A stretch of 64,000 bases of DNA from an uncultured Planctomycetia bacterium (GCA_964629655.1 CAZVQU010000001.1:612056-676055), one strand, 5' to 3'. Positions 9,416 through 30,452 are shown, counted from the stretch's first letter. The notes: generated from the sequence alone by a model not told the origin. Program-made: numbers and translations.

Positions 9416-10132
9416 ATGAGTGAGAAAAATATTGACTATGGTGGTTTAAAGAAACGAGGGTTTTTAAGAGAAAGACAAGAAGGCTTCTTTACTCTGAGAA
9501 CACGTGGGCCTTCAGGAAATTATAGCCAGAAGCACTTAGCAGGCTTAGCTAAAATTTCAGAGGACTATGCTCGAGGGTTTGTCCATCTTACGGTTCGTCA
9601 AGGAATCGAGATTCCTTTTATAAAGTTTGAACATATATTAAAAGTTGAGAAAGAAGTAAACCGGCTCGGTGTTAAGTTCGGGACTTCCGGGCTGCGTTTG
9701 AGAGCTACTACTGCCTGTCCGGGCAGCAATTGGTGCAAAAGTGGTCTTGTTGATACCTTTTTTCTTTTTAACCGGATAGAAGAAAAGGGAATCAGTTGTG
9801 GTTTAGAATTGCCGCATAAATTTAAAATTGTTATTTCCGGGTGCCCCAATACTTGTACAAGGGTTCAAGCCTCTGAGATAGGAATTCATGGAGCAGTGGA
9901 TGCAGAGAGTCCGGATAAAAGAATTGGCTATTGTCTATATTTAGGTGGGTGTGGCGGAAAGACTCCGCGTATCGGATTTAAGCTAAGTAAAATTTTTACT
10001 GAAGATGAGGTTCTATCCGTGATTGAGAGGGTAGTTATTTTCTATAAAGAAAATGCTAAGCCACGCCAACGCTTTGCTTTGTTGATTGAGGAGATCGGTA
10101 AGGATAATTTCTTAAAGCAAATAGGCTTTTAA
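9416..10132 (+). CDS. Small siroheme-dependent sulfite/nitrite reductase hemoprotein (low-molecular-weight assimilatory type)
   Basis: Nitrite/sulfite reductase ferredoxin-like half-domain with the siroheme-[4Fe-4S] cysteine motifs TACPGSNWC and SGCPNTC. The RBS is AGAGAGG. Confidence 0.65.
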   Translation: MSEKNIDYGGLKKRGFLRERQEGFFTLRTRGPSGNYSQKHLAGLAKISEDYARGFVHLTVRQGIEIPFIKFEHILKVEKEVNRLGVKFGTSGLRLRATTACPGSNWCKSGLVDTFFLFNRIEEKGISCGLELPHKFKIVISGCPNTCTRVQASEIGIHGAVDAESPDKRIGYCLYLGGCGGKTPRIGFKLSKIFTEDEVLSVIERVVIFYKENAKPRQRFALLIEEIGKDNFLKQIGF

Positions 10133-10160
10133 GACTAAAAAGAATAGATATTATTGCTTC

Positions 10161-10188
10161 TTGACAATTTTTTACTTAGTAATACAAT
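10161..10188 (+). promoter_or_regulatory. Sigma70-like promoter upstream of the Rrf2 regulator gene
   Basis: TTGACA 10161-10166, a 16-nt spacer, TACAAT 10183-10188. Confidence 0.45.
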
Positions 10189-10217
10189 TTGAATACTAAG
10201 ACTATTTAATTAATTGG

Positions 10218-10229
10218 ATTACTAGTAAT
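10218..10229. promoter_or_regulatory. Perfect 12-bp palindrome in the 5' leader of the Rrf2 gene (candidate autoregulatory operator)
   Basis: ATTACTAGTAAT is self-complementary. It is flanked by AATT and lies between the predicted -10 and the RBS GGGAGGAG. Confidence 0.35.
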
Positions 10230-10241
10230 TGGGAGGAGATT

Positions 10242-10682
10242 ATGAAAATTTCAACACGTACCAGATATGGAACAAGATTAATGCTAAGTCTAGCTTTAAA
10301 TTACGGTAAAGGACCATTTTTGTTGAAAGATGTTGCTGAGGGAGAACAGATCTCAGAAAAATATTTAAGCCAGATAATTATACCTTTAAAAGCTAAAGGG
10401 TTGGTGAATTCTTTTCGCGGTGCTCACGGAGGATATACTTTGGCAAAGGTGCCTTCTCAAATAAGTATCAAAGAAATAGTTGAAGCCTTAGAAGGAGGGC
10501 TTAATCTCGTAGGACGGGTCAAAGACGCTTCTTCTTGCAGCCAGGTCTCGATACGGGTTACTCACAATATTTGGAATGAGTTAAGTGAGAAAATGGCTAA
10601 GACGCTTGGTTCAATAACCTTAGATGATTTAGTGAAGGAGTCTAAGGCAAAAGGCAATAGGGTTTTAATGTACAACATCTAA
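10242..10682 (+). CDS. Rrf2-family transcriptional regulator (CymR/IscR-like)
   Basis: N-terminal wHTH TRYGTRLMLSLA...GPFLLKDVAE...ISEKYLSQII and the GGYTLAK motif. It has only two Cys, so it is probably not a cluster-binding IscR. Confidence 0.8.
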   Translation: MKISTRTRYGTRLMLSLALNYGKGPFLLKDVAEGEQISEKYLSQIIIPLKAKGLVNSFRGAHGGYTLAKVPSQISIKEIVEALEGGLNLVGRVKDASSCSQVSIRVTHNIWNELSEKMAKTLGSITLDDLVKESKAKGNRVLMYNI

Positions 10683-10693
10683 TAGGCCATAGC

Positions 10694-10711
10694 TTGTTAA
10701 ATAGTTAACAA
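10694..10711. promoter_or_regulatory. Inverted repeat TTGTTAA-ATAG-TTAACAA immediately upstream of the ThiI-like gene start
   Basis: 7-bp arms with a 4-nt spacer, ending 5 nt before the ATG at 10716. It could be an operator or an RBS-occluding hairpin. Confidence 0.3.
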
Positions 10712-10715
10712 TATA

Positions 10716-11705
10716 ATGAAAGCAATTGCCTTATTCTCCGGTGGACTGGATAGTACCTTAGCGATAAAGACCATTACTGAACAAGGGGTAGATGTTATAG
10801 CCTTGAATTTCTTTACTCCCTTCTGTCGTTGCGAGAGGTCAAAAGGCTGTGGGTCATTAATCAAGGATATGGCTAAGGAGCTTGGCGTAAAGATAAAAAT
10901 GGTTTGTTTAGGCCAGGATTATTTAGATATGATAAAAGACCCCGAACATGGATATGGTAAAAATATCAATCCCTGTATTGATTGTAGAATATTTAAGTTT
11001 AGACGAGCTAAAGGGGTTATGAAAGAAGAAGGGGCATCTTTTGTTATTACCGGGGAGGTCTTAGGACAAAGGCCGATGTCTCAGCATCGCCAGGCTTTGC
11101 GAACAATTGAAACCAAGGCCGGTCTAGAAGGGTTGGTTTTAAGACCTTTGTCGGCAAAGCTTTTTGCTCCTACTATAGCTGAAGAGCAAGGATGGGTAAG
11201 GAGAGAGGATTTACTGGAGATAAGTGGCAGGACTCGGAAGCCTCAGATTCGGTTAGCTTCTCATTGGGGGATAAAGAATTATCCTTGTCCAGCTGGAGGC
11301 TGTCTCTTAACAGATCATCATTTTTGCCAAAGACTAAAGGATCTTCTTAAACACGAAGAAATTAATATTAATAATACCGAGCTTTTAAAACTTGGCAGGC
11401 ATTTTCGCCTGAATCCTAAATTCAAACTAATTGTAGGCAGAGACGAAAAGGAAAACCAGAAGATTTTAAACTTAGCTCAAGAAGGAGATTTTTGCTTTGA
11501 ACCTAAAGATTTGCCAGGACCAACAGGAATCGGCAGGGGCCAACTTGATGAATCTGTAAAGATATTGTCTTCTCGGATAATAGCCCGTTACACTTCTCAA
11601 GAAGAAAAAGTAGATGTATTAGTCAGAACTATTCCCCAGAACCGGGGAGAAACCCTTTCTGTGAAGGCTATCGGCCAAGAGAAGATTAGAGAATACATAA
11701 TCTAA
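10716..11705 (+). CDS. ThiI-like PP-loop ATP pyrophosphatase / sulfurtransferase that lacks a THUMP domain and carries a Cys cluster
   Basis: [11 protein letters not shown]-loop in the first 15 residues. [14 protein letters not shown] and LRPL match the ThiI adenylation domain. Extra cysteines (CRCERSKGC and PCIDC) suggest a sulfide-dependent enzyme with an [Fe-S] cluster. Confidence 0.6.
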
Positions 11706-11730
11706 GCATACAGTGAAAAAGGAGGATAAA

Positions 11731-12642
11731 ATGAACATTGCCGAAAATATCACTCAACTAGTAGGGAATACTCCTTTGGTGAAGCTAGGCAAGCTCAGTG
11801 CCGGGATTGATGCTACCTTAGTAGTCAAACTAGAGTCTTTTAACCCTTGTTCAAGCGTTAAAGACAGAATTGGGTTGGCGATGATAGAAGATGCTGAGAG
11901 GAAGGGAAAGATTAACAAAGATACCGTTATTGTTGAACCGACTAGCGGCAATACCGGGATTGCTTTGGCTTTTGTCTGTGCTCAAAGAGGATATCGATTG
12001 GTTTTAACTATGCCCGAGAGCATGTCTTTGGAGAGAAGAAAACTACTATCCTGGTTTGGTGCCGAGCTAGTTTTGACACCGGCTGAGGGAGGGATGAAAG
12101 GTGCGATTGAAGAGGCCGAGGAGCTTCTTAAAAAGTATCCTAATGCTTTTATGCCCCAACAATTTAAGAACCCGGCTAATCCTAAAATACACCAAGAGGT
12201 TACAGCTGAAGAGATTTGGCGCGATACTAATGGGGAAATTGATATTTTAATCTCCGGTGTTGGTACCGGAGGAACAATTACCGGCGTAGCGGAGGCTCTT
12301 AAGAAAAAGAAGCCTGAGTTTGAAGCAATCGCTTTAGAGCCAGCAAAATCTCCTATTCTCTCTGGCGGTAAACCCGGTTCACACAAGATCCAAGGCATTG
12401 GCGCAGGTTTTGTTCCTGAGGTATTAAGGAGAGATTTAATAGATGAGATAATTTGCATAGAGGATGAAGATGCAATCTCTATGGCTGATCGGATTGCAAA
12501 AGAGGAAGGAATCCTGGTAGGGAATTCTAGCGGAGCAGCAGTCTGGGCCGGTTTAGAAATTGCTAGGCGTCCAGAAAATAAAGGTAAACTTATTGTAGTA
12601 ATCTTACCAGATACAGGGGAGAGATACTTATCTACTTGGTAG
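11731..12642 (+). CDS. cysK: Cysteine synthase (O-acetylserine or O-phosphoserine sulfhydrylase, PLP-dependent). The track start at 11713 is a GTG; the ATG at 11731 follows AAAAGGAGG.
   Basis: [10 protein letters not shown], the SVKDRIG PLP-lysine motif, and the GTGGT glycine loop. Confidence 0.8.
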
Positions 12643-12671
12643 TAAGTAACCCTGTAATATCAAGGAGGTGA

Positions 12672-13889
12672 ATGATGTCTAAGACAATAGCTGAGATTAA
12701 TGAAAAGATTAAGAAAGGGCAGGTGGTTGTTGTCACTGCTGAGGAGATGATAGGAATCGTTAAAGAAAAAGGAGCTAAAGCTGCGGCCGAAGAAGTGGAT
12801 GTAGTAACTACAGCTACCTTTGGCCCAATGTGTTCTTCAGGTGCCTATCTCAACATCGGGCATGCTAAGCCTAAGATAAAGCTAGGTGGGGGAAAGACTA
12901 CCCTAAATAAAATTGATACATATGCGGGTTTTGCTGCAGTTGATCTTTACATTGGAGCAACTGCCCTAGCTGACGATGATCCCAGGAATAAAGTTTTTCC
13001 GGGAAAATTCAAGTATGGCGGTGGGCATGTAATTGAAGATTTAGCAGCCGGGAAAGATATTGTTTTAGAGGGTGCTGCTTATGGGACAGATTGCTATCCA
13101 GGTAAAGAGCTTAAGACACTGATTAACATAAAAGACATCAACGAAGCAGTGCTTTTCAATCCTAGGAATCTGTATCAAAATTACAATATTGCTGTTAACT
13201 TATCTGACAAGACCATTTATACCTATATGGGAACCTTAAGACCAAAGGTAGGCAATGCAAACTATTGTAGTGCTGGACAACTTTCCCCATTTCTTAATGA
13301 CCCTCTTTACAGAACTATTGGTATTGGTACCAAGATATTCTTAGGCGGAGGCATTGGTTATGTTTCTTGGTGGGGAACTCAACATAATCCTGGAGTTAAG
13401 AGAGCTGACAATAAGACTCCTCTTACGCCAGCAGGAACAGCTGCTGTTATTGGTGACTTAAAACAGATGAGCGATAAGTGGCTTAAGGGGGTTAGTTTCT
13501 TAGGGTATGGAGTAACTCTTAGTGTGGGAATTGGTGTACCTATTCCGATACTCGATGAAGAAATGGCTCAGTTTACTGCTGTATCTGATGATCAACTCTC
13601 TGCGAGCATAGTCGATTATAGTAAAGCTTACCCTCAAGGAATTCCTGAATCTTTAGGAAGAGCTACTTATGCGGAACTTAAAACTGGGAAAATAACTGTA
13701 AGAGGAAGAGAAGTTCCTACCGGGGCAATATCAAGCTATCCTAAGGCAAGAGAGATAGCTGATGAACTTAAAACCTGGATTAAGAAAGGCGACTTTCTTT
13801 TGACTGAGCCAGTGGCTGAATTTCCCGGCCCGGATTCGGGATACAAATTTAAACCTTTAAAGGTCAGAGAAGTAAAAGGAGGTAAGTAG
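12672..13889 (+). CDS. COG1900/DUF39-family protein (the methanogen MA1821-type enzyme for sulfide-dependent homocysteine formation)
   Basis: About 400 aa with the characteristic Gly-rich blocks (KLGGGKTTLN, KYGGGHVIEDL, FLGGGIGYVSWWG). The RBS is AAGGAGG. Confidence 0.6.
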   Translation: MMSKTIAEINEKIKKGQVVVVTAEEMIGIVKEKGAKAAAEEVDVVTTATFGPMCSSGAYLNIGHAKPKIKLGGGKTTLNKIDTYAGFAAVDLYIGATALADDDPRNKVFPGKFKYGGGHVIEDLAAGKDIVLEGAAYGTDCYPGKELKTLINIKDINEAVLFNPRNLYQNYNIAVNLSDKTIYTYMGTLRPKVGNANYCSAGQLSPFLNDPLYRTIGIGTKIFLGGGIGYVSWWGTQHNPGVKRADNKTPLTPAGTAAVIGDLKQMSDKWLKGVSFLGYGVTLSVGIGVPIPILDEEMAQFTAVSDDQLSASIVDYSKAYPQGIPESLGRATYAELKTGKITVRGREVPTGAISSYPKAREIADELKTWIKKGDFLLTEPVAEFPGPDSGYKFKPLKVREVKGGK

Positions 13890-13891
13890 TT

Positions 13892-14299
13892 ATGTACTCC
13901 AAAAAAATAGTTCTACACTTTCCTTCCGATCTTGTTAACAAGTCGATAATTTATAGATTATCAAAAGACTTTGATTTAGAGTTCAATATTCTCAAAGCTC
14001 TTGTTAATCCTGACGAGGAAGGATTGATGGTCCTTGAGCTAAAGGGTGAGAAAGATGAGTATACCAGAGCAGTAAAATACCTAGAAAAAGAGAAGGTTAG
14101 AATTCAGACCTTATCTAAAGATGTAATTCGCGATGAAGATAAGTGTGTTGATTGCGGATTATGTGTCGCTGTCTGTCCGGTAGAGGCCTTTGAAGTAGAT
14201 TCTGATTCAAGAAAGATAGAATTCCACGACGATAAGTGTATTGCTTGTGAGATGTGCGTGAAAGTTTGTCCTTACAAGGCTATGGAGGTAAACTTCTAA
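13892..14299 (+). CDS. NIL-domain ferredoxin with 2x[4Fe-4S] (the MA1822-type partner of COG1900)
   Basis: N-terminal NIL-like domain (about 75 aa), then CVDCGLCVAVCP and CIACEMCVKVCP. The start is 3 nt after the previous stop. Confidence 0.6.
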   Translation: MYSKKIVLHFPSDLVNKSIIYRLSKDFDLEFNILKALVNPDEEGLMVLELKGEKDEYTRAVKYLEKEKVRIQTLSKDVIRDEDKCVDCGLCVAVCPVEAFEVDSDSRKIEFHDDKCIACEMCVKVCPYKAMEVNF

Positions 14300-14308
14300 G
14301 CGAAATTT

Positions 14309-14581
14309 ATGGCAGTAATAAGAATACCTTTGTTATTTCAAGAGGCAGTAGGTGGAGCTACCCAATTAGAGGTTAAGGCAGATAATATTAGCGAGTTGAT
14401 TGGTAACTTAACTAATGAATTTCCTGATCTCAAAGAGAAATTCTATGATACCCAAGGGAGTTTAAGTAAGTTTATCAACATCTATGTTAATGGGGAAGAT
14501 TCCCGGTTTTTAGAAGGCGAGAAAACTCACCTCAATGATAGAGATATCATAGATATTATTCTTCCTATTGCCGGAGGGTAG
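14309..14581 (+). CDS. ThiS/MoaD/CysO-family sulfur-carrier protein ending in Gly-Gly
   Basis: 90 aa with a beta-grasp-like composition. The C-terminal ...LPIAGG stop is the hallmark diglycine for adenylation and thiocarboxylation. Confidence 0.6.
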   Translation: MAVIRIPLLFQEAVGGATQLEVKADNISELIGNLTNEFPDLKEKFYDTQGSLSKFINIYVNGEDSRFLEGEKTHLNDRDIIDIILPIAGG

Positions 14582-14596
14582 GAAAGATTAATTAAG

Positions 14597-15379
14597 ATGG
14601 CACTTAGTCAAGAACAACTCACCAGATACCGGCGAAATATAACCATTCCGGCCATAGGCAGCAAGGGTCAAGAAAAGCTTCTTAACTCGAAGGTGTTAAT
14701 TATTGGTACCGGTGGCCTAGGCTCATCTTGTGCCTATTATTTAGCCGCTGCCGGCATTGGAAAGATTGGCCTAGTTGATTTTGATTTGGTAGAATTAGAT
14801 AACTTGCAGAGGCAAATTCTTCATGCAACCAGAGATATTGGAAAGTCGAAGGTTATATCCGCCAAAGATAAGCTTAACAATCTCAATCCCGAGATAGAGA
14901 TTACTCCCCATAAAGTTAAGTTATCTTCTGAGAATATATTAGATATTGTTAAAGACTATTTGTTATTAGTAGAGTGCTCAGATAACTTTTTAACAAAATA
15001 TCTATTAAATGATACCGCTATTCTTACTAAAAAACCATTGTTCTATGCAGCAGTGTTAAGATTTGAGGGTCAAGCTATGACTATTCTTCCCAGGCAGACT
15101 GCCTGTTATCGCTGTCTATTCCCTAAACCACCCTCCGAAAACGAATTCATCTCACCCAAAGATGCCGGGATTCTAGGAGCTGTTGCTGGGACGATAGGGT
15201 TGGTCCAGGCCAACGAAGTCTTAAAATACATTCTAAATATAGGAGAATTATTGACCAATAAGCTCTTAACTTTTGATTCTCTTGCTACAACTTTTAAGAA
15301 AATAAAAGTTCAGCCTAATCCGAGTTGTCCGGTATGCGGCCAAAATCCTACAATAAGAGAGATTACCGGCAGTAAATAA
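14597..15379 (+). CDS. ThiF/MoeB/HesA-family E1-like adenylyltransferase with a zinc CxxC...CxxC motif and no rhodanese domain
   Basis: LIIGTGGLGSSCAYYLAAAGIGKIGLVDFD nucleotide-binding motif, plus ACYRC and SCPVC. Confidence 0.8.
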   Translation: MALSQEQLTRYRRNITIPAIGSKGQEKLLNSKVLIIGTGGLGSSCAYYLAAAGIGKIGLVDFDLVELDNLQRQILHATRDIGKSKVISAKDKLNNLNPEIEITPHKVKLSSENILDIVKDYLLLVECSDNFLTKYLLNDTAILTKKPLFYAAVLRFEGQAMTILPRQTACYRCLFPKPPSENEFISPKDAGILGAVAGTIGLVQANEVLKYILNIGELLTNKLLTFDSLATTFKKIKVQPNPSCPVCGQNPTIREITGSK

Positions 15380-15486
15380 CTCTTCCTGAATGATCAAATA
15401 CAAGGATTGTAAATATATTTAAATCTGGTAGAATATCGCTTGCGTTAGATAGGTAAAGTTAGATAAATTCAAAGTAAGGGGGAGAT

Positions 15487-16272
15487 ATGACCAAGAAGAT
15501 TTTTAGTAGTGTAGGAGAAAAAGAAGTTACCCGGGCAATTGTCGATGAATTTTCAAAGCAGTTCTCAGAGTATACTGAGAGTGATGTAATTATTATTGGT
15601 GCTGGCCCCAGTGGACTTATGGCTGGTAAAGAATTAGCGCTCGCAGGGCTTAAAGTGCTTATTGTCGAGAGAAATAATTACCTTGGCGGCGGTTTCTGGA
15701 TTGGCGGTTATCTTATGAATAAACTTACCGTAAGGGCACCGGCTGAAGAAATTCTAAAAGAGCTGGGAGTTCCTTACAAAGAAACTAATCCCGGGCTTTT
15801 TGTTGCTGATGGCCCCCATGCTTGCTCTAAGCTTATTGCTGCTGCTTGTGATGCCGGGGTTAAAATAGCTAATATGACTGTCTTTGAAGATATTGTCTTA
15901 AGAGAGAAAAATCGTGTAGCTGGCGCAGTAATTAACTGGACTCCGGTTCAAGCCTTACCGCGGCAAATTACCTGCGTTGATCCGGTAGCTATAGAGGGAA
16001 AGATTGTGATTGATGCTACCGGCCATGATGCGATGGTTTGCCAGAAGATGGAAGAAAGAGACCTGCTTAAAACTAGAGGCTATGGAGCAATGTGGGTTGA
16101 GCGCTCTGAGGATTTATTGGTTGAGCATACCGGCGAAGTATCTCCTGGCCTCATAGTCATTGGTATGGCGGTATCGACTATGTATGGGCTTCCTCGAATG
16201 GGCCCTACTTTCGGCGGAATGCTTCTTTCCGGTAAAAGAGGCGCTGAAGTTGTAAAAGAAAAATTAAAGTAG
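15487..16272 (+). CDS. thi4: Thi4-family thiazole synthase. By eye it is the non-suicide, sulfide-dependent type: the yeast catalytic Cys position reads Thr in ...IDATGHDA....
   Basis: FAD-binding [10 protein letters not shown] and the conserved VAGAVINWT...CVDP...IDATGHDA block. The RBS is AAGGGGGAG. Confidence 0.75.
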
Positions 16273-16284: not shown

Positions 16285-17103
16285 ATGTCTAGGCGAAGTC
16301 ATCCCGCCAGGGGTACCATTTCTTCTATTTATCTTTATGGGAGTAGTGGCCTGCCAGAGTATAAAGCAGAAGAAATCACCGACTACCTAAAAAACATATA
16401 TCCTAAAGCAAAAACAGAGCAGAGAGGAGATTTCTTCTCCTTCTTGCTTAAAAGTCCGGACTCTCCTGATATTGAGGAGCTTGCCAGAAAAATTACCTGC
16501 TCCCGGGTTCATAGCGTTAGTGAGCAGCTGAAAGAGTTTTCACCCCTTCCCTTAGAGATTGAATATGAGAAAAAAAGGCTTTTGGGGAATAAACAACTAA
16601 AGGGTGTAATCTACGATGGTTTTCATTTACAAAAAATCTGCAGAGAGCTTCTTGGCTTAAAGGAATTTAAACCTTCATCCTGCCATATAATATTTACCAA
16701 CCAGCTATTAGCTAGTTTCGATAGCAATGATCGGCGCTATCATGTCAGAGTCGGTATCTATGGCCGGCCTAATATCATCTCTGTTCCGGGATTAGTAGAA
16801 GCTTTAGCTAAGCCTAAGGAGTACTACATAAAGATGCAGATGGGTGAGGATACCTTGACCTTAAGTCAGGAATTTAAAGGAGAGATTATCGAGTATGAAG
16901 ATACCCGGATTACAGAATTATTAAAAGGTTATTGCCTTCAAGCCCTTTTCTATCACTTGACCGGAGATCCTTTTTGCTCCGATAAAAAATGCCGCCTTTA
17001 TAATGCTCATTGGCAAAAGGAAGCAATCGAAGCCCAGATAGAGGCTGAGTATGAATTTTGCCTCAAGCATGCTGAGATTACTTCACAGTGGAAAAATAGA
17101 TAA
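16285..17103 (+). CDS. Hypothetical protein with conserved Cys/His (possible metal site). It weakly resembles archaemetzincin-type CX4C motifs.
   Basis: 272 aa, no TM segments. Cys/His-containing motifs are CHIIF, H(V)RVGIYGRP and FYHLTGDPFCSDKKCRLYNAHW. It sits between thi4 and the csoR promoter. Confidence 0.35.
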   Translation: MSRRSHPARGTISSIYLYGSSGLPEYKAEEITDYLKNIYPKAKTEQRGDFFSFLLKSPDSPDIEELARKITCSRVHSVSEQLKEFSPLPLEIEYEKKRLLGNKQLKGVIYDGFHLQKICRELLGLKEFKPSSCHIIFTNQLLASFDSNDRRYHVRVGIYGRPNIISVPGLVEALAKPKEYYIKMQMGEDTLTLSQEFKGEIIEYEDTRITELLKGYCLQALFYHLTGDPFCSDKKCRLYNAHWQKEAIEAQIEAEYEFCLKHAEITSQWKNR

Positions 17104-17145: not shown

Positions 17146-17176
17146 TTGACATACCCTAGGGGGGTATGGTATAAAT
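17146..17176 (+). promoter_or_regulatory. Promoter with an embedded CsoR-type operator (GC-rich inverted repeat ATACCC-TAGG-GGGGTAT)
   Basis: TTGACA 17146-17151 overlaps ATACCCTAGGGGGGTATGG, and TATAAAT at 17170-17176 is the -10. The repeat arms ATACCC and GGGTAT are reverse complements. It lies 58 nt upstream of csoR. Confidence 0.55.
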
Positions 17177-17233
17177 GGTTTAGGGATAATAGAGATATAA
17201 CAAGGGTATTGGTTTTAAAATACGAGGTGATAA

Positions 17234-17515
17234 ATGGCGCATAAAACAACTCATAGTGAAAATTTGATTGCTCTGCGAAGAATTGAGGGCCAGATTAAAG
17301 GTATCCAGAAAATGGTTGAAGAAAAGAAATATTGTATAGATATCGTCAATCAGGTTCATGCTTCAATAAGTGCTCTTCGCCGAGTAGCTGAGAAAATTCT
17401 CTCTAAACATATGGAACATTGCGTAGTAGATGCCATAAAGGGGAAATCAGAGTCGCAAAGAAAAGAAAAGATAGATGAGGTAATGAGTGTAATAAGAAAA
17501 ATACATAAGATATGA
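17234..17515 (+). CDS. csoR: CsoR/RcnR/FrmR-family metal-sensing transcriptional repressor
   Basis: 93 aa, all-helical. Conserved Cys (KYCIDI) and the H-x-x-x-C pair (HMEHC) sit at CsoR Cu(I)-ligand positions. The RBS is GAGGTG. Confidence 0.75.
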   Translation: MAHKTTHSENLIALRRIEGQIKGIQKMVEEKKYCIDIVNQVHASISALRRVAEKILSKHMEHCVVDAIKGKSESQRKEKIDEVMSVIRKIHKI

Positions 17516-18528
17516 GAGTAGCTAAAACAATTTTTATCTTGACCTTTATTTTAAGCCTAACAGTTCTACATAACGAAATAAAAGCAGGCTCTCTTTACAA
17601 GGAAATAAATATTATTGGTGGTTATTCCGATCTCAACAAATCGGTTGGTAAGGATAATAGGTCATTAAAGAATTCAATTGGCTTTGAGTATTATGATAAG
17701 TTTTCTGACCAATACGGAGATTATTTAACTGCCGATCTTCAAGTGAGATTAGCTTATGATTCTTTAAAGAATTCCAATGATGCCTGGGCTCTTGAGGTTC
17801 ACAATGCTTTTCTAGATTACAAATTAGGCTTAGGTAAGGCTTTACGTGTAGGGCATTTTGATCCCTCATTTGGGCTTGAACCGGTTCTGGATACGCACGG
17901 TACTTTATTCCAGACCTTAGCTCGCAAGAACATTGGTTTTAAAAAAGATTGGGGCACTGGCATAAGAGGTATTCTTGGTGAGTTTGACTATGAACTTTCT
18001 GCTCAAATTGGCTCGGGGATGGGTATTGAGAGAAAAGACGGAAGTTTTTTGCTCAGTAGCAGGCTCGGGACAGCCCAGGATAGAGATTTTCAATACGGGA
18101 TATCTTTGCTCTATGGTGAAGTGCTTGCCAGTAACGAAACAAAGACTATTCCGGCCCCGGAGCTTATCTCAAACCAGGCTATTCTTAAGAAGAGGATAGG
18201 TTTAGATGGCCAATATTCATCCGGCCCTTATCTACTAAAGGGAGAGTTAGTTTATGGCCAGGATTCCAACGATGATATTCTGGGATCGCTCCTTGAGGTT
18301 GATTACGTTCCTCGGTCTATTCAAGAGTTAGAATTTAAACTGCAAGGTCAGTTTTTCTCAAAAGATTTAGGAAATTCTAATCTTCAAGATATAATTGTTG
18401 GCGCTGGATTGGGCTACAAGCTTAATTCTGACCTTACTCTACGGTTAGCTTATTTTCATGATTTTCGCTCATCAAGCGTAGATAAGGATAGGCAGGTGCT
18501 TTTGCAAGTATACTATTATGGGCTTTAA
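17512..18528 (+). CDS. Putative outer-membrane beta-barrel protein (porin-like)
   Basis: Signal peptide, alternating amphipathic beta-strand pattern with many Y/G/D/N, and a C-terminal aromatic end ...VYYYGL. It overlaps the csoR stop by 4 nt. Confidence 0.45.
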   Translation: MRVAKTIFILTFILSLTVLHNEIKAGSLYKEINIIGGYSDLNKSVGKDNRSLKNSIGFEYYDKFSDQYGDYLTADLQVRLAYDSLKNSNDAWALEVHNAFLDYKLGLGKALRVGHFDPSFGLEPVLDTHGTLFQTLARKNIGFKKDWGTGIRGILGEFDYELSAQIGSGMGIERKDGSFLLSSRLGTAQDRDFQYGISLLYGEVLASNETKTIPAPELISNQAILKKRIGLDGQYSSGPYLLKGELVYGQDSNDDILGSLLEVDYVPRSIQELEFKLQGQFFSKDLGNSNLQDIIVGAGLGYKLNSDLTLRLAYFHDFRSSSVDKDRQVLLQVYYYGL

Positions 18529-18529
18529 G

Positions 18530-19213
18530 ATGAGAAAATTTATTTTAAGTTTAATGCTGTGTTTTTTATCAACTTTTGCTTACTCTGATGATGCGTCTGC
18601 AGCAGTTGGCTGTACCTTAAACGACCCGGATCGTGATGTAATCCGTATTTTCCCAGAATCTACCGGTTATCGAACTGATTTTATAAGCATAAAGGAGAAG
18701 GGTGGGGAGATTTTAGCAGAAGAAATAGAAAAGAAGCTCGGCGATAAACTAGATTCTGCTTATGAGTCTTTAGATGTGCCTTATTCTTACTATACCATTC
18801 TTAAAGGCATGGAGGTCATTGGCTACATTCATGGTGTTAACCAGAAAGGAACTTTTGGAGGAATACAGATTATCTTAGCCAGTGATTTAGAGGGTAAGAT
18901 AATAAATCTTTATTATCAGAAGATATCTTCTCCTGAGGCCAGTAAATTTAGAAACAAAAGATTTGTTGACCAGTTCACAGGACTAACACTGGCAGATTTC
19001 TATCGTCATGATGCTTTAGGGGGTAACGAATATTCTTATGACAAAATAGCAGAAATCAAAGATCCAAGCGAAAACAGCAATCAAGATTTTAAAGCCACCT
19101 TAAGAGGCATAAAGAAGAATTTAATCTTACTTGATGAGTTTATATTAAATAGTAAGTATGATCAGGATTATAACAAGATTAATAAAGGAGGTAATAATGA
19201 GAGTGATGATTAG
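18530..19213 (+). CDS. Secreted protein with an FMN-binding-like domain (similar to the NosR/RnfG/NqrC periplasmic domain). The flavinylation motif is not evident.
   Basis: Signal peptide MRKFILSLMLCFLSTFAYS. The core GVNQKGTFGGIQIILASDLEGKIINLYY...FVDQFTG fits an FMN_bind domain. The track start at 18518 precedes the porin stop. Confidence 0.4.
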   Translation: MRKFILSLMLCFLSTFAYSDDASAAVGCTLNDPDRDVIRIFPESTGYRTDFISIKEKGGEILAEEIEKKLGDKLDSAYESLDVPYSYYTILKGMEVIGYIHGVNQKGTFGGIQIILASDLEGKIINLYYQKISSPEASKFRNKRFVDQFTGLTLADFYRHDALGGNEYSYDKIAEIKDPSENSNQDFKATLRGIKKNLILLDEFILNSKYDQDYNKINKGGNNESDD

Positions 19214-19568
19214 CATTTCAGTATGTCTATTGATTATTTTCACCGGAGCATTAATAAGTGGGTGTGGCCGCTTAGAAGAGTATGGAGAAAGAATCTCCAA
19301 TCAAGAAATCACAAAAATTAGTGATATTCTCAAGAAACCAAAGAGTTATGACCAGAAAACACTTATTATTGAGGGCAAGATCATGGTTGAATGTCCTGCT
19401 GGCTGTTGGTTTACTTTAAGAGATGACTCAGGAGTTATCTATGTTGACCTTGGGCCTTCAGGGTTTGCCATAGCTCAGCATACAGGAGATGAGGTTTTAG
19501 TCGTTGGAGAGATTGTAGATAAGAAACCAAATCCAATAATGATCGGAAAAGGGGTGAAGATAAAATGA
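19197..19568 (+). CDS. Small lipoprotein, OB-fold-like, with a CxxGC motif
   Basis: AGGAGG RBS, then an ATG at 19197. There is a lipobox LISGC. The motif ECPAGCWF is followed by beta-rich sequence. The track start at 19158 is upstream of the RBS. Confidence 0.45.
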   Translation: MRVMISISVCLLIIFTGALISGCGRLEEYGERISNQEITKISDILKKPKSYDQKTLIIEGKIMVECPAGCWFTLRDDSGVIYVDLGPSGFAIAQHTGDEVLVVGEIVDKKPNPIMIGKGVKIK

Positions 19569-20749
19569 AATTAGCAATATTAGCCTTTAAGAATCTCAAA
19601 AGAAAAAAGATTCGTTCTTTCCTGACCATAGGAGGAGTTGCTATTGCTGTGGCGGTGTTAGTGAGCCTGATGGGTTTCAATCTTGGCTATCAAAAAGCTC
19701 TAGGCAGTGATATTGATAAGATGGGATATCAGCTCTTAGTTACTGCCAAAGGGTGTCCTTATGAGGCTGCAACGTTAATGTTAAAGGGCGGCGGCGGGTT
19801 ACGCTACATGGAAGAGGATGTATACAATAAGATTGTCCAAGATAGCCGTATAGACAAAGTCACTCCTCAATTAATATACACTGTCTTTGATCCTCAAAGA
19901 AGCGAAGGCCAAGGTGGCTTTGCGATGTACATGGGGATTTTAGATTCTTATCTGGAGTTAAAACCTTGGACTAAATTTAAGAGTGGCCGATGGTTTTCTG
20001 GTGAGGATGTTGAAGAGGTTGTTATGGGCTATGAGGCTGCCGAGGTTGAACAACGTTTGGTTGGTGATAAAATTTTCATTCCAGGCATTGATAGAGTTCT
20101 TAAAGTCGTAGGTATATTTGATAGAACCGGCACCCAAGATGACGGAGTGATATTTTTACCTCTAGCAACTTCACAAAGGATATTTAACCTTCCTGCTAAA
20201 TTAACTGGAATTGGCATAAAGTTAAAAGACATAAGAAAATTAGCAGAGTTTGAAGAAGATTTGTATGATGAGCCAGGCATCCAGGTAATCAGCATGGCTC
20301 AAGTAAGGGGAACAATTCTTAATCTCATATCTTCGGCAAAGATTTTAGTAAACTCAGTAGCGGTAATAGCTATTTTTATAGCAATAATCGGAGTAATAAA
20401 TACTATCCTAATGTCTGTATTTGAGCGAACTCAAGAAATTGGCGTAATGAAAGCTATTGGTGCTTCCAAGCTAGATATTTTTCAAATTATCTGGATCGAA
20501 ACAACTCTTATTTGTGTCTTAGGCGGGGTTGCCGGCAGCCTCGTAGCTATTTTAGGCGGAAACGTAATTGAGCACATATTAAAACAAATCTTGCCTTATG
20601 CTCCTAGTGGGAAGTTAGTGCTTATTACTCCAAATCTTCTCCTAGCCTCATTCCTCGGGGCTATTATTTTGGGATTGATCTCAGGGATTTACCCGGCAGC
20701 TCGGGCAGCATCAATGAGACCGATTGAGGCAATCAGGCGCGGAGGATAA
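19565..20749 (+). CDS. ABC transporter permease of the FtsX/MacB/LolCE family
   Basis: TM1, then a periplasmic domain of about 220 aa, then three C-terminal TM helices with the conserved FtsX region (LMSVFERTQEIGVMKAIGAS). Confidence 0.8.
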   Translation: MKLAILAFKNLKRKKIRSFLTIGGVAIAVAVLVSLMGFNLGYQKALGSDIDKMGYQLLVTAKGCPYEAATLMLKGGGGLRYMEEDVYNKIVQDSRIDKVTPQLIYTVFDPQRSEGQGGFAMYMGILDSYLELKPWTKFKSGRWFSGEDVEEVVMGYEAAEVEQRLVGDKIFIPGIDRVLKVVGIFDRTGTQDDGVIFLPLATSQRIFNLPAKLTGIGIKLKDIRKLAEFEEDLYDEPGIQVISMAQVRGTILNLISSAKILVNSVAVIAIFIAIIGVINTILMSVFERTQEIGVMKAIGASKLDIFQIIWIETTLICVLGGVAGSLVAILGGNVIEHILKQILPYAPSGKLVLITPNLLLASFLGAIILGLISGIYPAARAASMRPIEAIRRGG

Positions 20750-20752
20750 AAT

Positions 20753-21445
20753 ATGAGTGAGTGTATAGTAAGAGGGAAAAAACTAAAAAAAATATATAGG
20801 CTTCCAGCTGAGGACATTGTTGCCTTGAAAGGAATAGACTTTGAAATCCAAAAGGGTGAGTTTGTGGCTGTTATTGGTCCTTCTGGTGCTGGCAAAACTA
20901 CGCTTCTTAATCTCATCGGGTGCTTAGACGGAGTCTCTTCAGGTAATTTAGAGGTCTTAGGATATGATTTATCTAAAGCCAAAGAGAAACATTTGCCTAA
21001 AATACGGAGGAAGAATATCGGGTTTATATTCCAGGAATTCTATTTAATTCCTTCTTTAACTGCTTTGGAGAACGTAGAGCTTTCTTTGCATTTTTCTAGG
21101 CTACCTAAAGAGAACGGCAGAGCAACAGAGATTTTGAAAAGTGTCGGATTGGGAAAACGAATTAACCATTTTCCTAGAGAGCTTTCCGGAGGCGAGATGC
21201 AAAGAGTTGCGATTGCCAGAGCTTTAATTACTTCTCCAGAGATACTTTTAGCTGATGAACCCACAGGAAATTTAGATACTAGAAACACTCAAGGAATTTT
21301 TAGCCTTTTCAGAGAGCTAAATCAAACTGAGGGCATAACTATAGTAGTAGCAACCCATAATATTAAGTTTGGTTATCAATCCGATAAGGTTATCCATTTA
21401 GTTGATGGTAATATTGACAGAGAAGAGAGGATAAAGCATGGATAA
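20753..21445 (+). CDS. ABC transporter ATP-binding protein (MacB/LolD type)
   Basis: Walker A GPSGAGKTT, signature LSGGEMQRV, Walker B LLADEPTG, H-loop ATHN. Confidence 0.85.
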   Translation: MSECIVRGKKLKKIYRLPAEDIVALKGIDFEIQKGEFVAVIGPSGAGKTTLLNLIGCLDGVSSGNLEVLGYDLSKAKEKHLPKIRRKNIGFIFQEFYLIPSLTALENVELSLHFSRLPKENGRATEILKSVGLGKRINHFPRELSGGEMQRVAIARALITSPEILLADEPTGNLDTRNTQGIFSLFRELNQTEGITIVVATHNIKFGYQSDKVIHLVDGNIDREERIKHG

Positions 21446-22130
21446 AGCTATTGAGGCTATCAATTTAAAGAAATACTACACTCGGGGTTCAGAACTGGTT
21501 AAGGCTCTTGATGGAGTTAACATTGCCATAAGAAAAGGTGAAATTATCTCGATAGTCGGGCCGTCTGGCTCAGGTAAGACGACTTTACTTAATTTGGTCA
21601 GCTGTCTGGATCTGCCAACTGACGGAAATATAAAGATAAACGGAGAGGATATTACTAAATTTAAAGAGTCGCAGCTAATTGAAATCAGGCGAAAAAACTT
21701 AGGCTTTATTTTTCAACAGTTCCATCTTATACTTACCTTAACAGTTAGAGAGAACGTAGAGTTACCGTTAATTTTTGCTAAGAAAAATATAAATGCAAAG
21801 AAGATTTCTCAAACCTTAGAAAGAGTCGGGTTAAAAGGGAAAGAAAACCTCAGAGTTGATACCTTAAATGGAGGGGACAAGCAGAGAGTAGCTATTGCCC
21901 GTGCCCTTGTGAATGATCCCAAGATCCTTATTGCCGATGAGCCTACTGGAGAGCTGGAGACAGAAGTCCGCAACTCTATTTTAGATCTTTTTAGAAAGTT
22001 AGCCCAGTCAGGTTTAGCGATTGTTGTTGCGACTCATGATCTAGAGCTTGCTGAGGCCGCGGAGAGAATAATCTATCTTCAGGATGGTAAAATAGTATCA
22101 AAGTCTGAATCAAGCCTGTACTTTAGTTAA
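21438..22130 (+). CDS. Second ABC transporter ATP-binding protein, with a variant signature motif
   Basis: Walker A GPSGSGKTT, signature LNGGDKQRV (Ser to Asn), Walker B ILIADEPTGELE. It overlaps the upstream ATPase by 8 nt. Confidence 0.8.
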   Translation: MDKAIEAINLKKYYTRGSELVKALDGVNIAIRKGEIISIVGPSGSGKTTLLNLVSCLDLPTDGNIKINGEDITKFKESQLIEIRRKNLGFIFQQFHLILTLTVRENVELPLIFAKKNINAKKISQTLERVGLKGKENLRVDTLNGGDKQRVAIARALVNDPKILIADEPTGELETEVRNSILDLFRKLAQSGLAIVVATHDLELAEAAERIIYLQDGKIVSKSESSLYFS

Positions 22131-22138: not shown

Positions 22139-23113
22139 ATGAAAAGAGCAGAGAGAGACGCAGATTGTATAATCCTCAAGGAATTAAAGGATAATGATGG
22201 TTATACTTCCGGAGAAGAGTTAGCCAACAAGCTAAAGATTAGCCGTCAGGCTTTATGGAAGCATATTGGCAAGCTTACTGATAAAGGTTATGACATTGTA
22301 GCCATTCCTCATCTAGGGTATAAGCTTATTTCCTGTCCTGATAAATTTTATCCTTGGGAAATTCAATATAATTTAAACACTCATTTTATCGGCAAAGAGA
22401 TTCACCATCAGGAGATAATAGATTCTACTCAAGATTTCACTTGGCAATTAGGGTTGAAAGGGGCAGCAGAGGGCACAGTAGTATTTGCCGAGACCCAGAA
22501 AAAGGGGAGAGGTCGTATCCAGAGGCAGTGGATTTCTCCGCGAGGAGGAATTTATTTCTCACTACTCCTAAAGCCTTACTTTCTTTCTATCCAGGAGGTT
22601 CCTCAAATCACTCTCCTTATTGCTTTAGGTTGTCTGCGCGGTATAAAAAAAGCAACCGGTGTAGAGTGTTCAGTGAAATGGCCTAATGATATTTATCTTA
22701 AAGGAAAAAAGTTAGGCGGAATACTTTGTGAAATGAATGCTGAGGCTGATAGAATTCATTTTGTAGTAGCAGGCCTAGGTATTAATATTAACTCTAAAGA
22801 CCTGCCTCTTCAGGCCACTTCCTTATTCCTAAATTTAAAGAAGAAAGTGTCACGGGTAGAGATTGCTAAAAGAATACTTGAAGAAATAGAAGTTTGCTAT
22901 CGACAGGCCCAAGGTGAAGGATTTTCTAATTTGCTTAAAGAATGGAGTCGATTTTGTTCTCTCTGGGGCAAACGGATAAAAGTAAAGGTTTTTAACAAAC
23001 GGATAGAGGGTGAAGCTGCCGGAATAGATGAGAAAGGATATCTACTCCTGCGTAAAGACAATGGCCTGGTAGAGAAAGTTTCTGCCGGCGACGTTACAAA
23101 ACTTGCTCTCTGA
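22139..23113 (+). CDS. birA: Bifunctional biotin-[acetyl-CoA-carboxylase] ligase / biotin operon repressor
   Basis: N-terminal HTH (SGEELANKLKISRQALWKHI), a BPL catalytic domain with the GRGRxxxxW-like motif KKGRGRIQRQW, and a C-terminal SH3-like tail. Confidence 0.8.
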   Translation: MKRAERDADCIILKELKDNDGYTSGEELANKLKISRQALWKHIGKLTDKGYDIVAIPHLGYKLISCPDKFYPWEIQYNLNTHFIGKEIHHQEIIDSTQDFTWQLGLKGAAEGTVVFAETQKKGRGRIQRQWISPRGGIYFSLLLKPYFLSIQEVPQITLLIALGCLRGIKKATGVECSVKWPNDIYLKGKKLGGILCEMNAEADRIHFVVAGLGININSKDLPLQATSLFLNLKKKVSRVEIAKRILEEIEVCYRQAQGEGFSNLLKEWSRFCSLWGKRIKVKVFNKRIEGEAAGIDEKGYLLLRKDNGLVEKVSAGDVTKLAL

Positions 23114-23152: not shown

Positions 23153-23590
23153 GTGAAAAAAGCAATAAGCTGCGTTATCGTACTTTTCATATTGTTTGGT
23201 GGATCGCAAGCATTTAGCGAATCAGGACCAAGAATTAAACTTAGTGAAGAATATTGGGATTTCGGCCAATTAAAAGAGCCAGAGATAGCTGAGAAAGTAT
23301 TTTTGGTAGAAAATACCGGGGATCGGGATTTGGTAATCAAGACTATTCTTACGACTTGCGGGTGCGTTACTACAGAAATTTCTTCAAACAACATTGGCCC
23401 TCAAAGCAGTGAAGAGTTAAAGGCGATTTACAATACAAAAGGGAAATCTTTTGGCAGGGACAGTAAGGATATTTATGTTGTTTCTAATGATTTATTCAAT
23501 CCCAGGATGAGAATCACGATTGAGGCAACGATTATATCGGACGAGGATTACTCTAGGCAAGATTTGTTAGAAAAAGGAGGAAGAAAATGA
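23153..23590 (+). CDS. Secreted DUF1573-domain protein
   Basis: GTG start after AAGGAG, and a signal peptide. The DUF1573 motif is VENTGDRDLVIKTILTTCGCVT. Confidence 0.5.
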   Translation: MKKAISCVIVLFILFGGSQAFSESGPRIKLSEEYWDFGQLKEPEIAEKVFLVENTGDRDLVIKTILTTCGCVTTEISSNNIGPQSSEELKAIYNTKGKSFGRDSKDIYVVSNDLFNPRMRITIEATIISDEDYSRQDLLEKGGRK

Positions 23591-24273
23591 TTAGGGCGGT
23601 AAAAATTATTATTATTTCACTTATTGTATTTTCTAATAGCATTGCTTTTGCTGATATTAAAGAAGATATTTATTCGAAATTAAAATGCTGCAGTTGCCCC
23701 AAGCTATTTGCATCTTGTTCTTGTAGGCACTCTAAAGAGATAAAAGCATATATCGATACTTTTCCGGAGAAAGCCTTAAGCCAAGAAGAGATCCTCGTAA
23801 AAATAGCAAAGAAATTTGGCTTAGATACCATCGTTGACCCGGAATCAAGAAAGCTAGTTGAGAAAGAATTGATAGCTGAGGTTGGGGAAAAACGACCAGA
23901 GATCTTCATCGATCCTACCCGATACAACTTAGGAGAAGTTAGTAAAGCCAGTGGGGAATTAAGGGTCGAGGTAAAATTACAAAATAAGGGTAGGAGGAAA
24001 TTGAAGATAACCGATTTAAAGCCATCGTGCCCTTGCACTACGGTTAAATTGAAAAAAAAGAAATACATCAGCCCTGCTTTTGGGACCAAAGGCGCAAAAC
24101 CAGGCTGGGCGGTAAGCATAAGACCCAAAGAAGTAGGAGAGCTGATTATAATTGTCGACCTCAATCATGCCAGTATCGATTTGGGAGGGATGCTAAGAAC
24201 GATTGAGGTTAAAAGTAATGACCCCTTGAAACCCTCAATTAAGATAGAATTAGAAGCTCAAATAATAGAGTAA
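23587..24273 (+). CDS. Secreted protein with an N-terminal Cys-rich stretch and a C-terminal DUF1573 domain
   Basis: Signal peptide, then CCSCPKLFASCSCRH, later LQNKGRRKLKITDLKPSCPCTT. The RBS is AAAGGAGG. Confidence 0.5.
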   Translation: MIRAVKIIIISLIVFSNSIAFADIKEDIYSKLKCCSCPKLFASCSCRHSKEIKAYIDTFPEKALSQEEILVKIAKKFGLDTIVDPESRKLVEKELIAEVGEKRPEIFIDPTRYNLGEVSKASGELRVEVKLQNKGRRKLKITDLKPSCPCTTVKLKKKKYISPAFGTKGAKPGWAVSIRPKEVGELIIIVDLNHASIDLGGMLRTIEVKSNDPLKPSIKIELEAQIIE

Positions 24274-30385: not shown

Positions 30386-30412
30386 GGATATTTTTTTAAA
30401 GTATAACTGAAA

Positions 30413-30423: not shown

Positions 30424-30452
30424 AATCAAGAAGGGGTAAGAGGTAAGGATTA

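Follow-up and report, generated by a model that had tools for sequence, protein, structure and literature searches.

Positions 17,234 to 22,130 of a 64,000-nt stretch of DNA from an uncultured Planctomycetia bacterium (CAZVQU010000001.1:612056-676055; "the window" below means this whole stretch) hold seven genes on the + strand, headed by the gene of a CsoR-family repressor. We propose that this cassette is a Cu(I)- or soft-metal-inducible machine for envelope detoxification or export, working on a MacB/FtsX-type mechanotransmission ATP-binding cassette (ABC) transporter, and we give this reading a probability of about one half; its induction, substrate, transport direction and all protein contacts are what we infer. 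An undescribed envelope system for copper or another thiophilic metal had been suggested in the initial annotation. Such a system is the best current reading, since csoR and its operator are conserved together, the CsoR is of the predicted Cu(I) type, no CPx ATPase is found nearby and other metal-linked partners occur; the substrate and function within that suggestion stay presumptive. The literature was searched for the cassette, DUF4920, the operator strings and CsoR- or copper-linked FtsX/MacB proteins, and no description was found.

The initial annotation had described a CsoR-headed, tightly packed operon of seven genes, and all seven open reading frames (ORFs) were found where it had placed them. 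The operon with its promoter and the gene behind it are listed below; positions are those of the window, and homology calls on window proteins were made with Pfam and NCBIfam models.

17146-17151, + strand: -35 element TTGACA, read directly from the sequence.
17151-17167, + strand: candidate CsoR operator ATACCCTAGGGGGGTAT, a TAC-N9-GTA site that fills the promoter spacer.
17170-17175, + strand: -10 element TATAAA, with an 18-nt spacer from the -35 element; sigma-70 type.
17224-17229, + strand: ribosome-binding site GAGGTG of csoR.
17234-17515, + strand: csoR, predicted Cu(I)-type CsoR-family repressor, 93 aa (Pfam PF02583).
17512-18528, + strand: probable outer-membrane beta-barrel, 338 aa, with signal peptide (sub-threshold porin matches).
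18530-19213 (or start 18518), + strand: secreted protein of the RnfG/NqrC fold (FMN_bind fold) without flavinylation motif, 227 aa.
19197-19568, + strand: OB-fold lipoprotein, 123 aa, lipobox LISGC.
19565-20749, + strand: FtsX/MacB-type permease, 394 aa (Pfam MacB_PCD and FtsX).
20753-21445, + strand: ABC ATPase 1, 230 aa, LolD/MacB-like (Pfam ABC_tran 2.8e-33).
21438-22130, + strand: ABC ATPase 2, 230 aa, with variant signature LNGGD (Pfam ABC_tran 2.7e-36).
22139-23113, + strand: birA (TIGR00121 6.2e-65), 8 nt 3' of the last ATPase gene.

Since the genes are joined by overlaps or gaps of a few bases, the region reads as a single operon. The junctions are overlaps of 4 nt (csoR/barrel), 17 nt (RnfG-like/OB), 4 nt (OB/FtsX) and 8 nt (ATPase 1/ATPase 2), and a 3-nt gap lies between FtsX and ATPase 1. 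Between the barrel and RnfG-like genes there is an 11-nt overlap if the latter starts at 18518, and a 1-nt gap with the start at 18530 that is favored by the homologues; of the overlaps of 4, 11 and 4 nt reported initially, that of 11 nt depends on the start at 18518. The module does end 8 nt before birA, as had been said. No terminator-like site was found between 22130 and 22139, and birA is possibly co-transcribed with the cassette, though outside the system; among the related loci (numbered L below) it follows the cassette in L008 and L046 only.

The window CsoR matched Trns_repr_metal (PF02583) with an E-value of 2.8e-27 and 95 bits (cut-off 22.8). Its best NCBIfam match was the copper sensor RicR (5e-22), with RcnR and FrmR at about 1e-6 to 1e-7. 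Cu(I) sensors are defined by an x-C-H-C arrangement plus second-shell Tyr and Glu residues (C36/H61/C65, Y35 and E81 in Mycobacterium tuberculosis), and this set separates them from the persulfide-sensing CstR and from the Ni/Co and formaldehyde sensors (PMC8643695). Among the CsoR proteins of the cassettes, C34, H59 and C63 were invariant in all 37 aligned, and Y33 and E82 were conserved at 90% or more. By these residues, the window CsoR is predicted to be of the Cu(I)-sensing type and carries everything needed for Cu(I) sensing.

A CsoR-type operator ahead of csoR had also been claimed, and ATACCCTAGGGGGGTAT was found within the promoter spacer as the only such site in the window, with 0.11 chance matches expected at up to three mismatches. 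Type-2 CsoR operators were experimentally defined as G/C-tract pseudopalindromes with the consensus ATATACCCCTNAGGGGTATAT and a TAC-X9-GTA rule, and ATACCCTAGGGGGGTAT fits both consensus and rule (PMC3902906). The inverted-repeat finder gave no result on the csoR promoter because the operator arms are just 6 nt long; the site was recognized by eye, and a pattern search then confirmed it. The pattern ATACC[CT]-N5-[GA]GGTAT stood immediately 5' of csoR in 25 of the 36 related cassette csoR genes. It occurred 31 times in total in the 873 kb of fetched loci, never before a cassette lacking csoR.

The typical CsoR regulon, with copA and copZ as neighbors, was not seen in the csoR-headed cassettes: no CPx P-type ATPase (a protein with both DKTGT and CPx) was found within 6 kb in 34 loci, nor anywhere in the 64-kb window. 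The CsoR-copZA operons of Bacillus subtilis, Streptomyces lividans and M. tuberculosis share with the cassette the repressor family, the x-C-H-C/Tyr/Glu site and a promoter-overlapping TAC-N9-GTA operator with G/C tracts, and both are autoregulated with csoR as the first gene. They differ in the regulated genes, which in the cassette are a set of five or six envelope genes instead of a P1B-ATPase and CopZ. The regulator appears to be an ordinary Cu(I) CsoR with an unusual regulon, and two of the accessory families, the barrel and the flavin-less FMN_bind-fold protein, are without a curated model. In one Lentisphaerales metagenome-assembled genome (MAG), a second perfect CsoR operator (ATACCCCCGTGGGGTAT) was observed 5' of a gene for an ArsP_1 permease with an HMA domain fused to its C-terminus. 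This gene and the DUF2400 gene behind it lie just upstream of the csoR cassette (L035, 2414-4478); the ArsP_1-HMA gene may, from its operator, be an additional member of the CsoR regulon.

In order to follow the cassette across genomes, one genome per species was scanned; at least 398 encode the 227-aa protein, and 80 loci were fetched. More than 2750 homologues of this protein (90% clusters) with about 60% identity were found in Omnitrophota, Poribacteria, Eisenbacteria, Coatesbacteria and others, all named hypothetical and none with a Pfam domain. Hidden Markov models (HMMs) built from the window proteins found the order barrel, RnfG-like, OB lipoprotein, FtsX, ATPase in essentially every fetched locus, and the barrel was always the first structural gene. 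The 79 non-redundant loci comprised 34 of the OB type with csoR directly upstream, 29 of the OB type without csoR, and 16 with neither OB nor csoR. These results strongly supported the view that the structural genes are a fixed set travelling together across many phyla, in hundreds of mostly anaerobic bacteria. Co-conservation with csoR, which the initial annotation had put forward as a check, was borne out by csoR adjacency in 34 of 79 loci and by the operator in front of 25 of 36 csoR genes. The seven-gene order held for its core, from barrel through RnfG-like, OB and FtsX to one ATPase, and not for the second ATPase, which is a minority feature.

The permease matched MacB_PCD (PF12704, 1.1e-21) and FtsX (PF02687, 1.1e-20). 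Hydropathy placed transmembrane (TM) helices at residues 19-37, 260-278, about 305-332 and 351-369, with the periplasmic domain between TM1 and TM2. This domain carries the subfamily motifs AKGC64PYEAAT..GG.GLRY and GTQDDG; C64 was present in 86 of 90 sequences, and the motif around it was retained in Chloroflexi and Massilia. Both ATPases have intact Walker A, Walker B and H-loop motifs and scored highest with LolD, FtsE and MacB models. The equivalog cut-offs of the NCBIfam MacB, LolC/E, LolD and FtsX models were all missed by a wide margin by the operon proteins: the MacB model gave 77 bits (cut-off 966) and lolCE 74.6 (cut-off 362), and the ATPases scored 228 (ATPase 1) and 220 with LolD (cut-off 308). 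The two ATPases are 48.8% identical to each other. Of the 93 cassette ATPases, 83 are nearer to ATPase 1 than to ATPase 2, which makes ATPase 1 the orthologue of the single ATPase that most cassettes have. ATPase 2 is an extra paralogue present in a minority of cassettes, with orthologues of 62-68% identity in L008, L012, L041 and L049.

The 123-aa lipoprotein has an OB fold, as do the periplasmic BOF/DUF4920 proteins. It gave no BOF/DUF4920 Pfam match itself, and an NCBIfam OB model matched at 1e-3 only; its homologues scored 12-28 bits against the BOF/DUF4920 Pfam models (cut-off 25), with P0125 alone passing, and the OB profile had no meaningful matches among the Protein Data Bank (PDB) sequences. 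Its motif E-C-P-x-G-x-W-F, of which only C66, W71 and F72 are invariant, was placed by a DSSP string in the loop of the OB beta1-beta2 hairpin. The Cys-pair motif CPAGC pointed out initially did not survive comparison, since its second Cys is Gly in most homologues.

For the 227-aa protein, the Pfam search gave no match, PF04205 included, and the rnfG model TIGR01947 reached an E-value of 0.03 and 14 bits against a cut-off of 102. Alignment of the RnfG-like profile with Escherichia coli RsxG by hhalign covered 25 columns and was not significant, and no meaningful matches to PDB sequences were obtained. The window protein matched a Massilia homologue (27%, 5e-10), which in turn matched a Ralstonia protein annotated as binding flavin mononucleotide (FMN) and containing ISGATLS (27.5%, 6e-10). 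This chain of sequence matches supports homology beyond analogy, and the 227-aa protein shares the three-dimensional fold of FMN_bind (RnfG/NqrC/NosR). The target motif for flavinylation by ApbE is [S/T]GA[S/T] (PMC8238504). In a joint alignment, the SGAT of the Ralstonia FMN_bind protein and E. coli RsxG stood opposite variable residues (SENS, STEH, SQNQ, APAA or DGAD) in the RnfG-like family, indicating that the ApbE motif has been lost. Thus, the former label "FMN-binding-like" is right for the fold and wrong for the flavinylation motif and the FMN_bind Pfam match. T190 (DFKAT) was considered as a flavinylated residue and ruled out by the alignment with true FMN_bind proteins; it is absent in Massilia.

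The RnfG-like family is compact (424 representatives among 1.84 billion) and has an invariant AAVGC-x-LNDPDRD motif containing C28 right behind the signal peptide, together with H101. Reading AAVGC as a lipobox, which would make the protein a lipoprotein, is unlikely given AFA|DVC in Massilia and charged residues before the motif in several homologues; since the Massilia site does not form a lipobox, a free thiol close to the mature N-terminus is the most likely state of the Cys. Among the closest known relatives are the FMN_bind domains of RnfG, NqrC and NosR and the non-flavinylated Borrelia lipoprotein BB0365. Unlike the FMN_bind domains, the family has neither a PF04205 match nor [S/T]GA[S/T] and has gained the N-terminal AVGC-x-LNDPDRD, and, unlike RnfG, NqrC and NosR, it stands outside any Rnf, Nqr or Nos complex. 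In proteins P0276, P0278 and P0284 of about 500 aa, the RnfG-like domain is fused to DUF3179, which is listed among the selenocysteine/cysteine (Sec/Cys) selenoprotein families; in L091 (6001-7605), genes for a DUF4920-like OB protein, an FtsX protein and an ATPase adjoin one such fusion. A single 608-aa ORF joining RnfG-like and FtsX was observed in a Chitinivibrionia MAG (L075, 5932-7758); as a true fusion it is topologically implausible, and a frameshift introduced by the assembly at the usual 4-nt overlap is its probable source.

The 338-aa protein is, from its sequence, a probable outer-membrane beta-barrel. The window protein matched Porin_O_P at 3e-3, which is sub-threshold; of 33 homologues, 11 matched Porin_4 (best 9.3e-6) and 9 matched Porin_O_P, none of them reaching the cut-off. 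The barrel profile found no relative among PDB sequences, and its hhalign alignment with a Ralstonia Porin_O_P protein was not significant. H115, H129, W147 and M170 are conserved.

The permease (C64), the OB protein (C66) and the RnfG-like protein (C28) each have one invariant periplasmic Cys, kept even in the Massilia and Chloroflexi versions of the components, which suggests a thiolate relay. We propose that apo-CsoR would bind the TAC-N9-GTA operator between the promoter elements and so keep its own operon repressed, and that a rise in cytosolic Cu(I) would take CsoR off the operator so that the operon is expressed. The OB lipoprotein would capture Cu(I) or another thiophilic ion in the periplasm, with Cys66 and Trp71 on a ligand-binding hairpin; a Met/His-rich YtkA-like protein would replace it in the second variant described below. 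The ion would be handed to the periplasmic Cys64 of the permease, and Cys28 of the RnfG-fold protein may participate. ATP hydrolysis by a cytoplasmic ATPase dimer would drive the periplasmic domain by mechanotransmission like that of MacB or LolCDE. The RnfG-fold protein and the porin-like barrel with its conserved His, His, Met and Trp would form the outer-membrane route, standing in for a membrane-fusion protein and TolC. A bolder version is tentative and, in our view, rather doubtful: the cassette would represent a new class of envelope-spanning soft-metal expulsion machine, widespread in anaerobic diderms, in which a MacB-type motor serves a three-Cys thiolate relay through OB or YtkA-like protein, permease and RnfG-fold protein into the barrel, wired to the sulfide and Fe-S economy. 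Within that version, the metal would possibly be exported as a thiolate or sulfide species.

The partners of the cassette vary with lineage. The 16 loci without an OB gene also lack csoR, and in 11 of them the barrel gene is immediately preceded by that of a YtkA-like protein (PF13115), whose invariant M-P-S-M-x-G-x-H-D-S-G motif is typical of Met/His soft-metal binding. Since OB is present in 63 of 79 loci and YtkA-like takes its place in 11 of the other 16, the two are complementary, as expected of interchangeable periplasmic metal-binding components. A secreted YHS/TRASH protein stands upstream of the barrel in three loci, and the locus most like the window (L008) has the order operator, YHS, csoR, cassette. 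In Chloroflexi/Dehalococcoidia, which have no outer membrane, only OB (149-157 aa), FtsX and ATPase are found, with GCPYEAAS, GTQDD and ECPAGCWF intact and without barrel, RnfG-like protein or csoR (L088, 2691-12474; L090, 5042-9275). The barrel and the RnfG-fold protein therefore seem to be the outer-membrane half of the machinery. In the Chloroflexi, the proteins encoded ahead of the module were considered as RnfG-like candidates and were found to be neither conserved nor RnfG-like.

Only one of 72,556 plasmids carried the cassette, a 78-kb mobilizable plasmid (MOBP, with type IV secretion genes) of Massilia putida 6NM-7, which was isolated from a tungsten mine tailing. This copy is complete and divergent (L093, 9756-14356; NZ_CP019036.1, 43373-47973), with the order ArsR/SmtB repressor, barrel, RnfG-like, OB (periplasmic and non-lipidated), FtsX, ATPase and a protein with a DsbD-N domain. 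The window HMMs matched its barrel, RnfG-like, OB, FtsX and ATPase proteins at 1.6e-18, 9.4e-21, 1.2e-17, 6e-107 and 1e-97, respectively. The ArsR/SmtB protein has a Cys-rich C-terminus, and recombinase and transposase genes flank the cassette. Among its other cargo, the plasmid has DmeF together with an RcnR-like repressor, another CDF transporter and an efflux pair of the RND/TolC kind. Three unrelated metal-linked genes (CsoR; YtkA-like or YHS; ArsR/SmtB) thus head the cassette in different lineages.

Known systems share parts of this arrangement. With MacAB-TolC and LolCDE (type VII), the cassette has in common a four-TM permease with MacB_PCD between TM1 and TM2 and a separate LolD/MacB-like ATPase. 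It differs in its own motifs KGCPYEAAT and GTQDDG, in having one permease gene with one or two ATPase genes, and in its partners, which are a porin-like barrel, a flavin-less RnfG-fold protein and an OB lipoprotein; the LolA and LolB of LolCDE do not accompany it. CusF is an OB fold with a Trp-capped site. By its proposed logic, the cassette would resemble CusCFBA in that a small periplasmic OB-fold protein passes a soft metal to an energized exporter that is useful mainly under anoxia. The cassette would use ATP through an FtsX-type ABC transporter instead of an RND antiporter, its OB lipoprotein has one Cys and a Trp in place of Met2His, and no homology of its proteins to CusF, CusB or CusC was detected. 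NosDFY-NosL, like the cassette, combines an ABC ATPase, a lipoprotein and a copper link, and in both ATP may power periplasmic work and not transmembrane transport. The permease NosY, however, is of the ABC-2 type, while that of the cassette is of the FtsX type. The P19/FTR1 clusters (Campylobacter cj1658-cj1665) are likewise metal-related and contain, next to an ABC transporter, a periplasmic protein of FMN_bind fold or thiol type (PMC8238504; PMC6338021); the cassette has neither P19 nor FTR1, is regulated by a sensor of metal excess and has lost the flavin site.

The resemblance to the Nos copper-delivery machinery drawn in the initial annotation did not hold up. NosL, NosD and NosY gave no matches, the permease is not of the ABC-2 type, the flavinylation motif is lost, and the searches proposed for FMN_bind and NosL returned neither PF04205 nor NosL among the operon proteins. 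Its remark that NosZ and NosD are absent was correct, both for the operon and for the most frequent neighbor families.

Upstream of the cassette, at 9416-16272, lies a sulfide-assimilation supercluster with the cassette at its end; the initial annotation did not mention it, and its genes recur beside the cassette in other phyla. Its genes, and the one that separates it from the csoR promoter, are as follows.

Starting at 9416: small NIR_SIR sulfite reductase.
Starting at 10242: Rrf2 regulator.
Between Rrf2 and CysK: ThiI-like/NFACT-R_2 protein.
Starting at 11713: CysK-like PALP enzyme.
Starting at 12672: HcyBio.
Between HcyBio and Thi4: ferredoxin with NIL and 2x[4Fe-4S], ThiS and ThiF.
Starting at 15487: Thi4.
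16285-17103, between Thi4 and the csoR promoter: DUF6775/DUF7001 "probable metallopeptidase" (1.7e-79).

The DUF6775/DUF7001 gene was absent near the cassette in the 80 related loci. On the 3' side of the cassette are birA, two DUF1573 proteins, biotin genes including bioB, and feoB. At least one of the sulfur genes was found within 6 kb in 17 of the 80 loci, and feoB was near the cassette in 6 other loci. The commonest neighbor families were YtkA (6), AhpC/Redoxin (6), YHS (5), NIR_SIR (4), Rrf2 (4), Thi4 (4), PALP (4) and Aminotran_5 (3).

Several observations weigh against a metal export machine. Twenty-nine OB-type loci have no csoR, about 8 of which end at a contig boundary. The porin matches of the probable barrel were all sub-threshold. 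MacB-type systems do not normally work without an adaptor and a TolC-like duct, and neither an HlyD-type adaptor nor TolC was found in the operon or the neighbor surveys. The OB protein has a single Cys and no conserved multi-ligand metal site, and the RnfG-fold H101 is lost in Massilia, which keeps the three conserved Cys. Six csoR-less cassettes start 3-76 nt after NIR_SIR, ThiF, HcyBio, Thi4, PALP or NifU, and the Chloroflexi module (L088, L090) lies within an Rrf2-ThiF-IscS ... CysK-CysE-MetB operon. This synteny with sulfur and Fe-S genes suggests sulfur chemistry no less than metals. Within PVC and Omnitrophota, common descent may have raised the sulfur-gene counts, and the synteny there may have been inherited and not repeatedly selected; the Chloroflexi case is independent.

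The frequent embedding in sulfide-assimilation and Fe-S operons keeps alive an alternative that we consider unlikely, in which the three invariant periplasmic Cys form a persulfide or sulfane-sulfur relay. The cassette would then acquire or dispose of reduced sulfur (polysulfide, S0 or metal-sulfide) for the adjacent sulfide-dependent biosyntheses, and control by CsoR would be secondary, explained by the toxicity of Cu(I) to sulfide and Fe-S chemistry. The position of the window cassette behind the NIR_SIR-to-Thi4 cluster and ahead of bioB and feoB, the 17 loci with sulfur genes, the csoR-less cassettes and the Chloroflexi operon just described all speak for it, as do the recurrent Rrf2, Aminotran_5 and AhpC/Redoxin neighbors, the fusion of RnfG-like to a DUF of the Sec/Cys list and the DsbD-N protein behind the Massilia cassette. 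The CsoR, however, retains the His that distinguishes Cu(I) sensors from persulfide-sensing CstR, the YtkA-like MPSMxGxHD and the YHS partners are metal-type motifs, and the Massilia copy sits among metal efflux genes under ArsR/SmtB. Moreover, H2S requires no transporter, and no TGA (selenocysteine) variant was found at the conserved Cys positions in 90 loci.

Metal could also move the other way. In a system for metal acquisition or cofactor insertion like NosDFY-NosL or the P19/FTR1 clusters, metal would enter through the barrel and then be chaperoned or reduced by the periplasmic proteins. A porin-like barrel does suit uptake better than efflux without TolC, YtkA/CtaK-type domains are used in CuA assembly, and feoB occurs in the window and near 6 loci. 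In P19 clusters, an ABC transporter is accompanied by a protein of FMN-binding or thioredoxin-like type (PMC8238504; PMC6338021). We nevertheless judge acquisition quite improbable, since a repressor released by excess Cu(I) would act in the wrong sense for copper uptake, neither a Fur or DtxR gene nor a site for either regulator stands at the head of the cassette, NosZ, NosD, NosL, P19 and FTR1 are absent from the neighbor counts, and the Massilia copy is placed among efflux determinants. Loss of the flavin site in the FMN_bind-fold protein also makes a reductase role unlikely. A generic exporter of the MacB/Lol kind, with a lipoprotein, peptide or lipid as its substrate and its metal links due to regulatory happenstance or hitch-hiking, would account for the best scores of the ATPases and permease with LolD, LolCE and MacB models, for the 29 OB-type cassettes without csoR, and for an OB protein that, itself a lipoprotein, could be the cargo. 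This explanation seems very improbable to us: the Lol, MacB and FtsX equivalog cut-offs are all widely missed, the head position is taken by CsoR, YtkA-like or YHS, or ArsR/SmtB in different lineages, the operator is conserved, and the invariant Cys motifs specific to the subfamily would be left unexplained.

To our knowledge, copper homeostasis in anaerobic and candidate phyla (Omnitrophota, Planctomycetota, Aminicenantes, Lentisphaerota, Cloacimonadota, Eisenbacteria and others) is essentially uncharted, and CueO-type oxidation cannot operate without oxygen. If soft-metal export is the function, the cassette would be the main periplasmic copper defense of these phyla, with a MacB-type architecture lacking adaptor and TolC, and would extend the regulon of Cu(I)-sensing CsoR beyond copZA. 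The cassette also defines a permease subfamily with an invariant periplasmic Cys motif and a flavin-less FMN_bind-fold family with about 60% identity across phyla. Its coupling to sulfide-assimilation and Fe-S operons may show how anaerobes that depend on sulfide cope with free sulfide and thiophilic metals together. The plasmid copy of M. putida makes the question directly testable in a cultured aerobe.

The Ralstonia "FMN-binding protein" matches were also considered as members of the cassette and were assigned to a different system, with a di-haem protein, a porin and a genuine FMN_bind protein. On the R. solanacearum megaplasmid (L094, 5332-10128), a "diacylglycerol kinase" gene is followed by the porin and the FMN_bind protein with ISGATLS; since the first product has two CxxCH motifs, it looks like a di-haem peroxidase-like protein. 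These genes make up a different flavinylated envelope system that is apparently uncharacterised. The FMN_bind gene is conserved on 128 Ralstonia plasmid records, and its neighbors were examined in one of them (OE1-1).

Further features were seen 3' of the operon. The two DUF1573 proteins (23153-24273, between birA and bioB) are secreted and HYDIN-like Ig in type; the first has a TTCGC motif, and the second has a Cys-rich N-terminal segment KCCSCPKLFASCSCRH and PSCPC. DUF1573 is listed as a Sec/Cys (UGC) family (PMC9312934). Behind the biotin operon, 29936-33066 holds an iron module with a small ORF (29936-30385), FeoB (654 aa, 30453-32417) and a 215-aa ORF (32419-33066), and the ORFs flanking FeoB resemble Fur- and DtxR-type regulators by eye only. 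Across the window, 58 of the 61 called ORFs lie on the + strand, GC skew is positive in every 2-kb bin and GC content is about 39%; the strand bias and skew suggest that the window is on the leading strand, far from origin or terminus.

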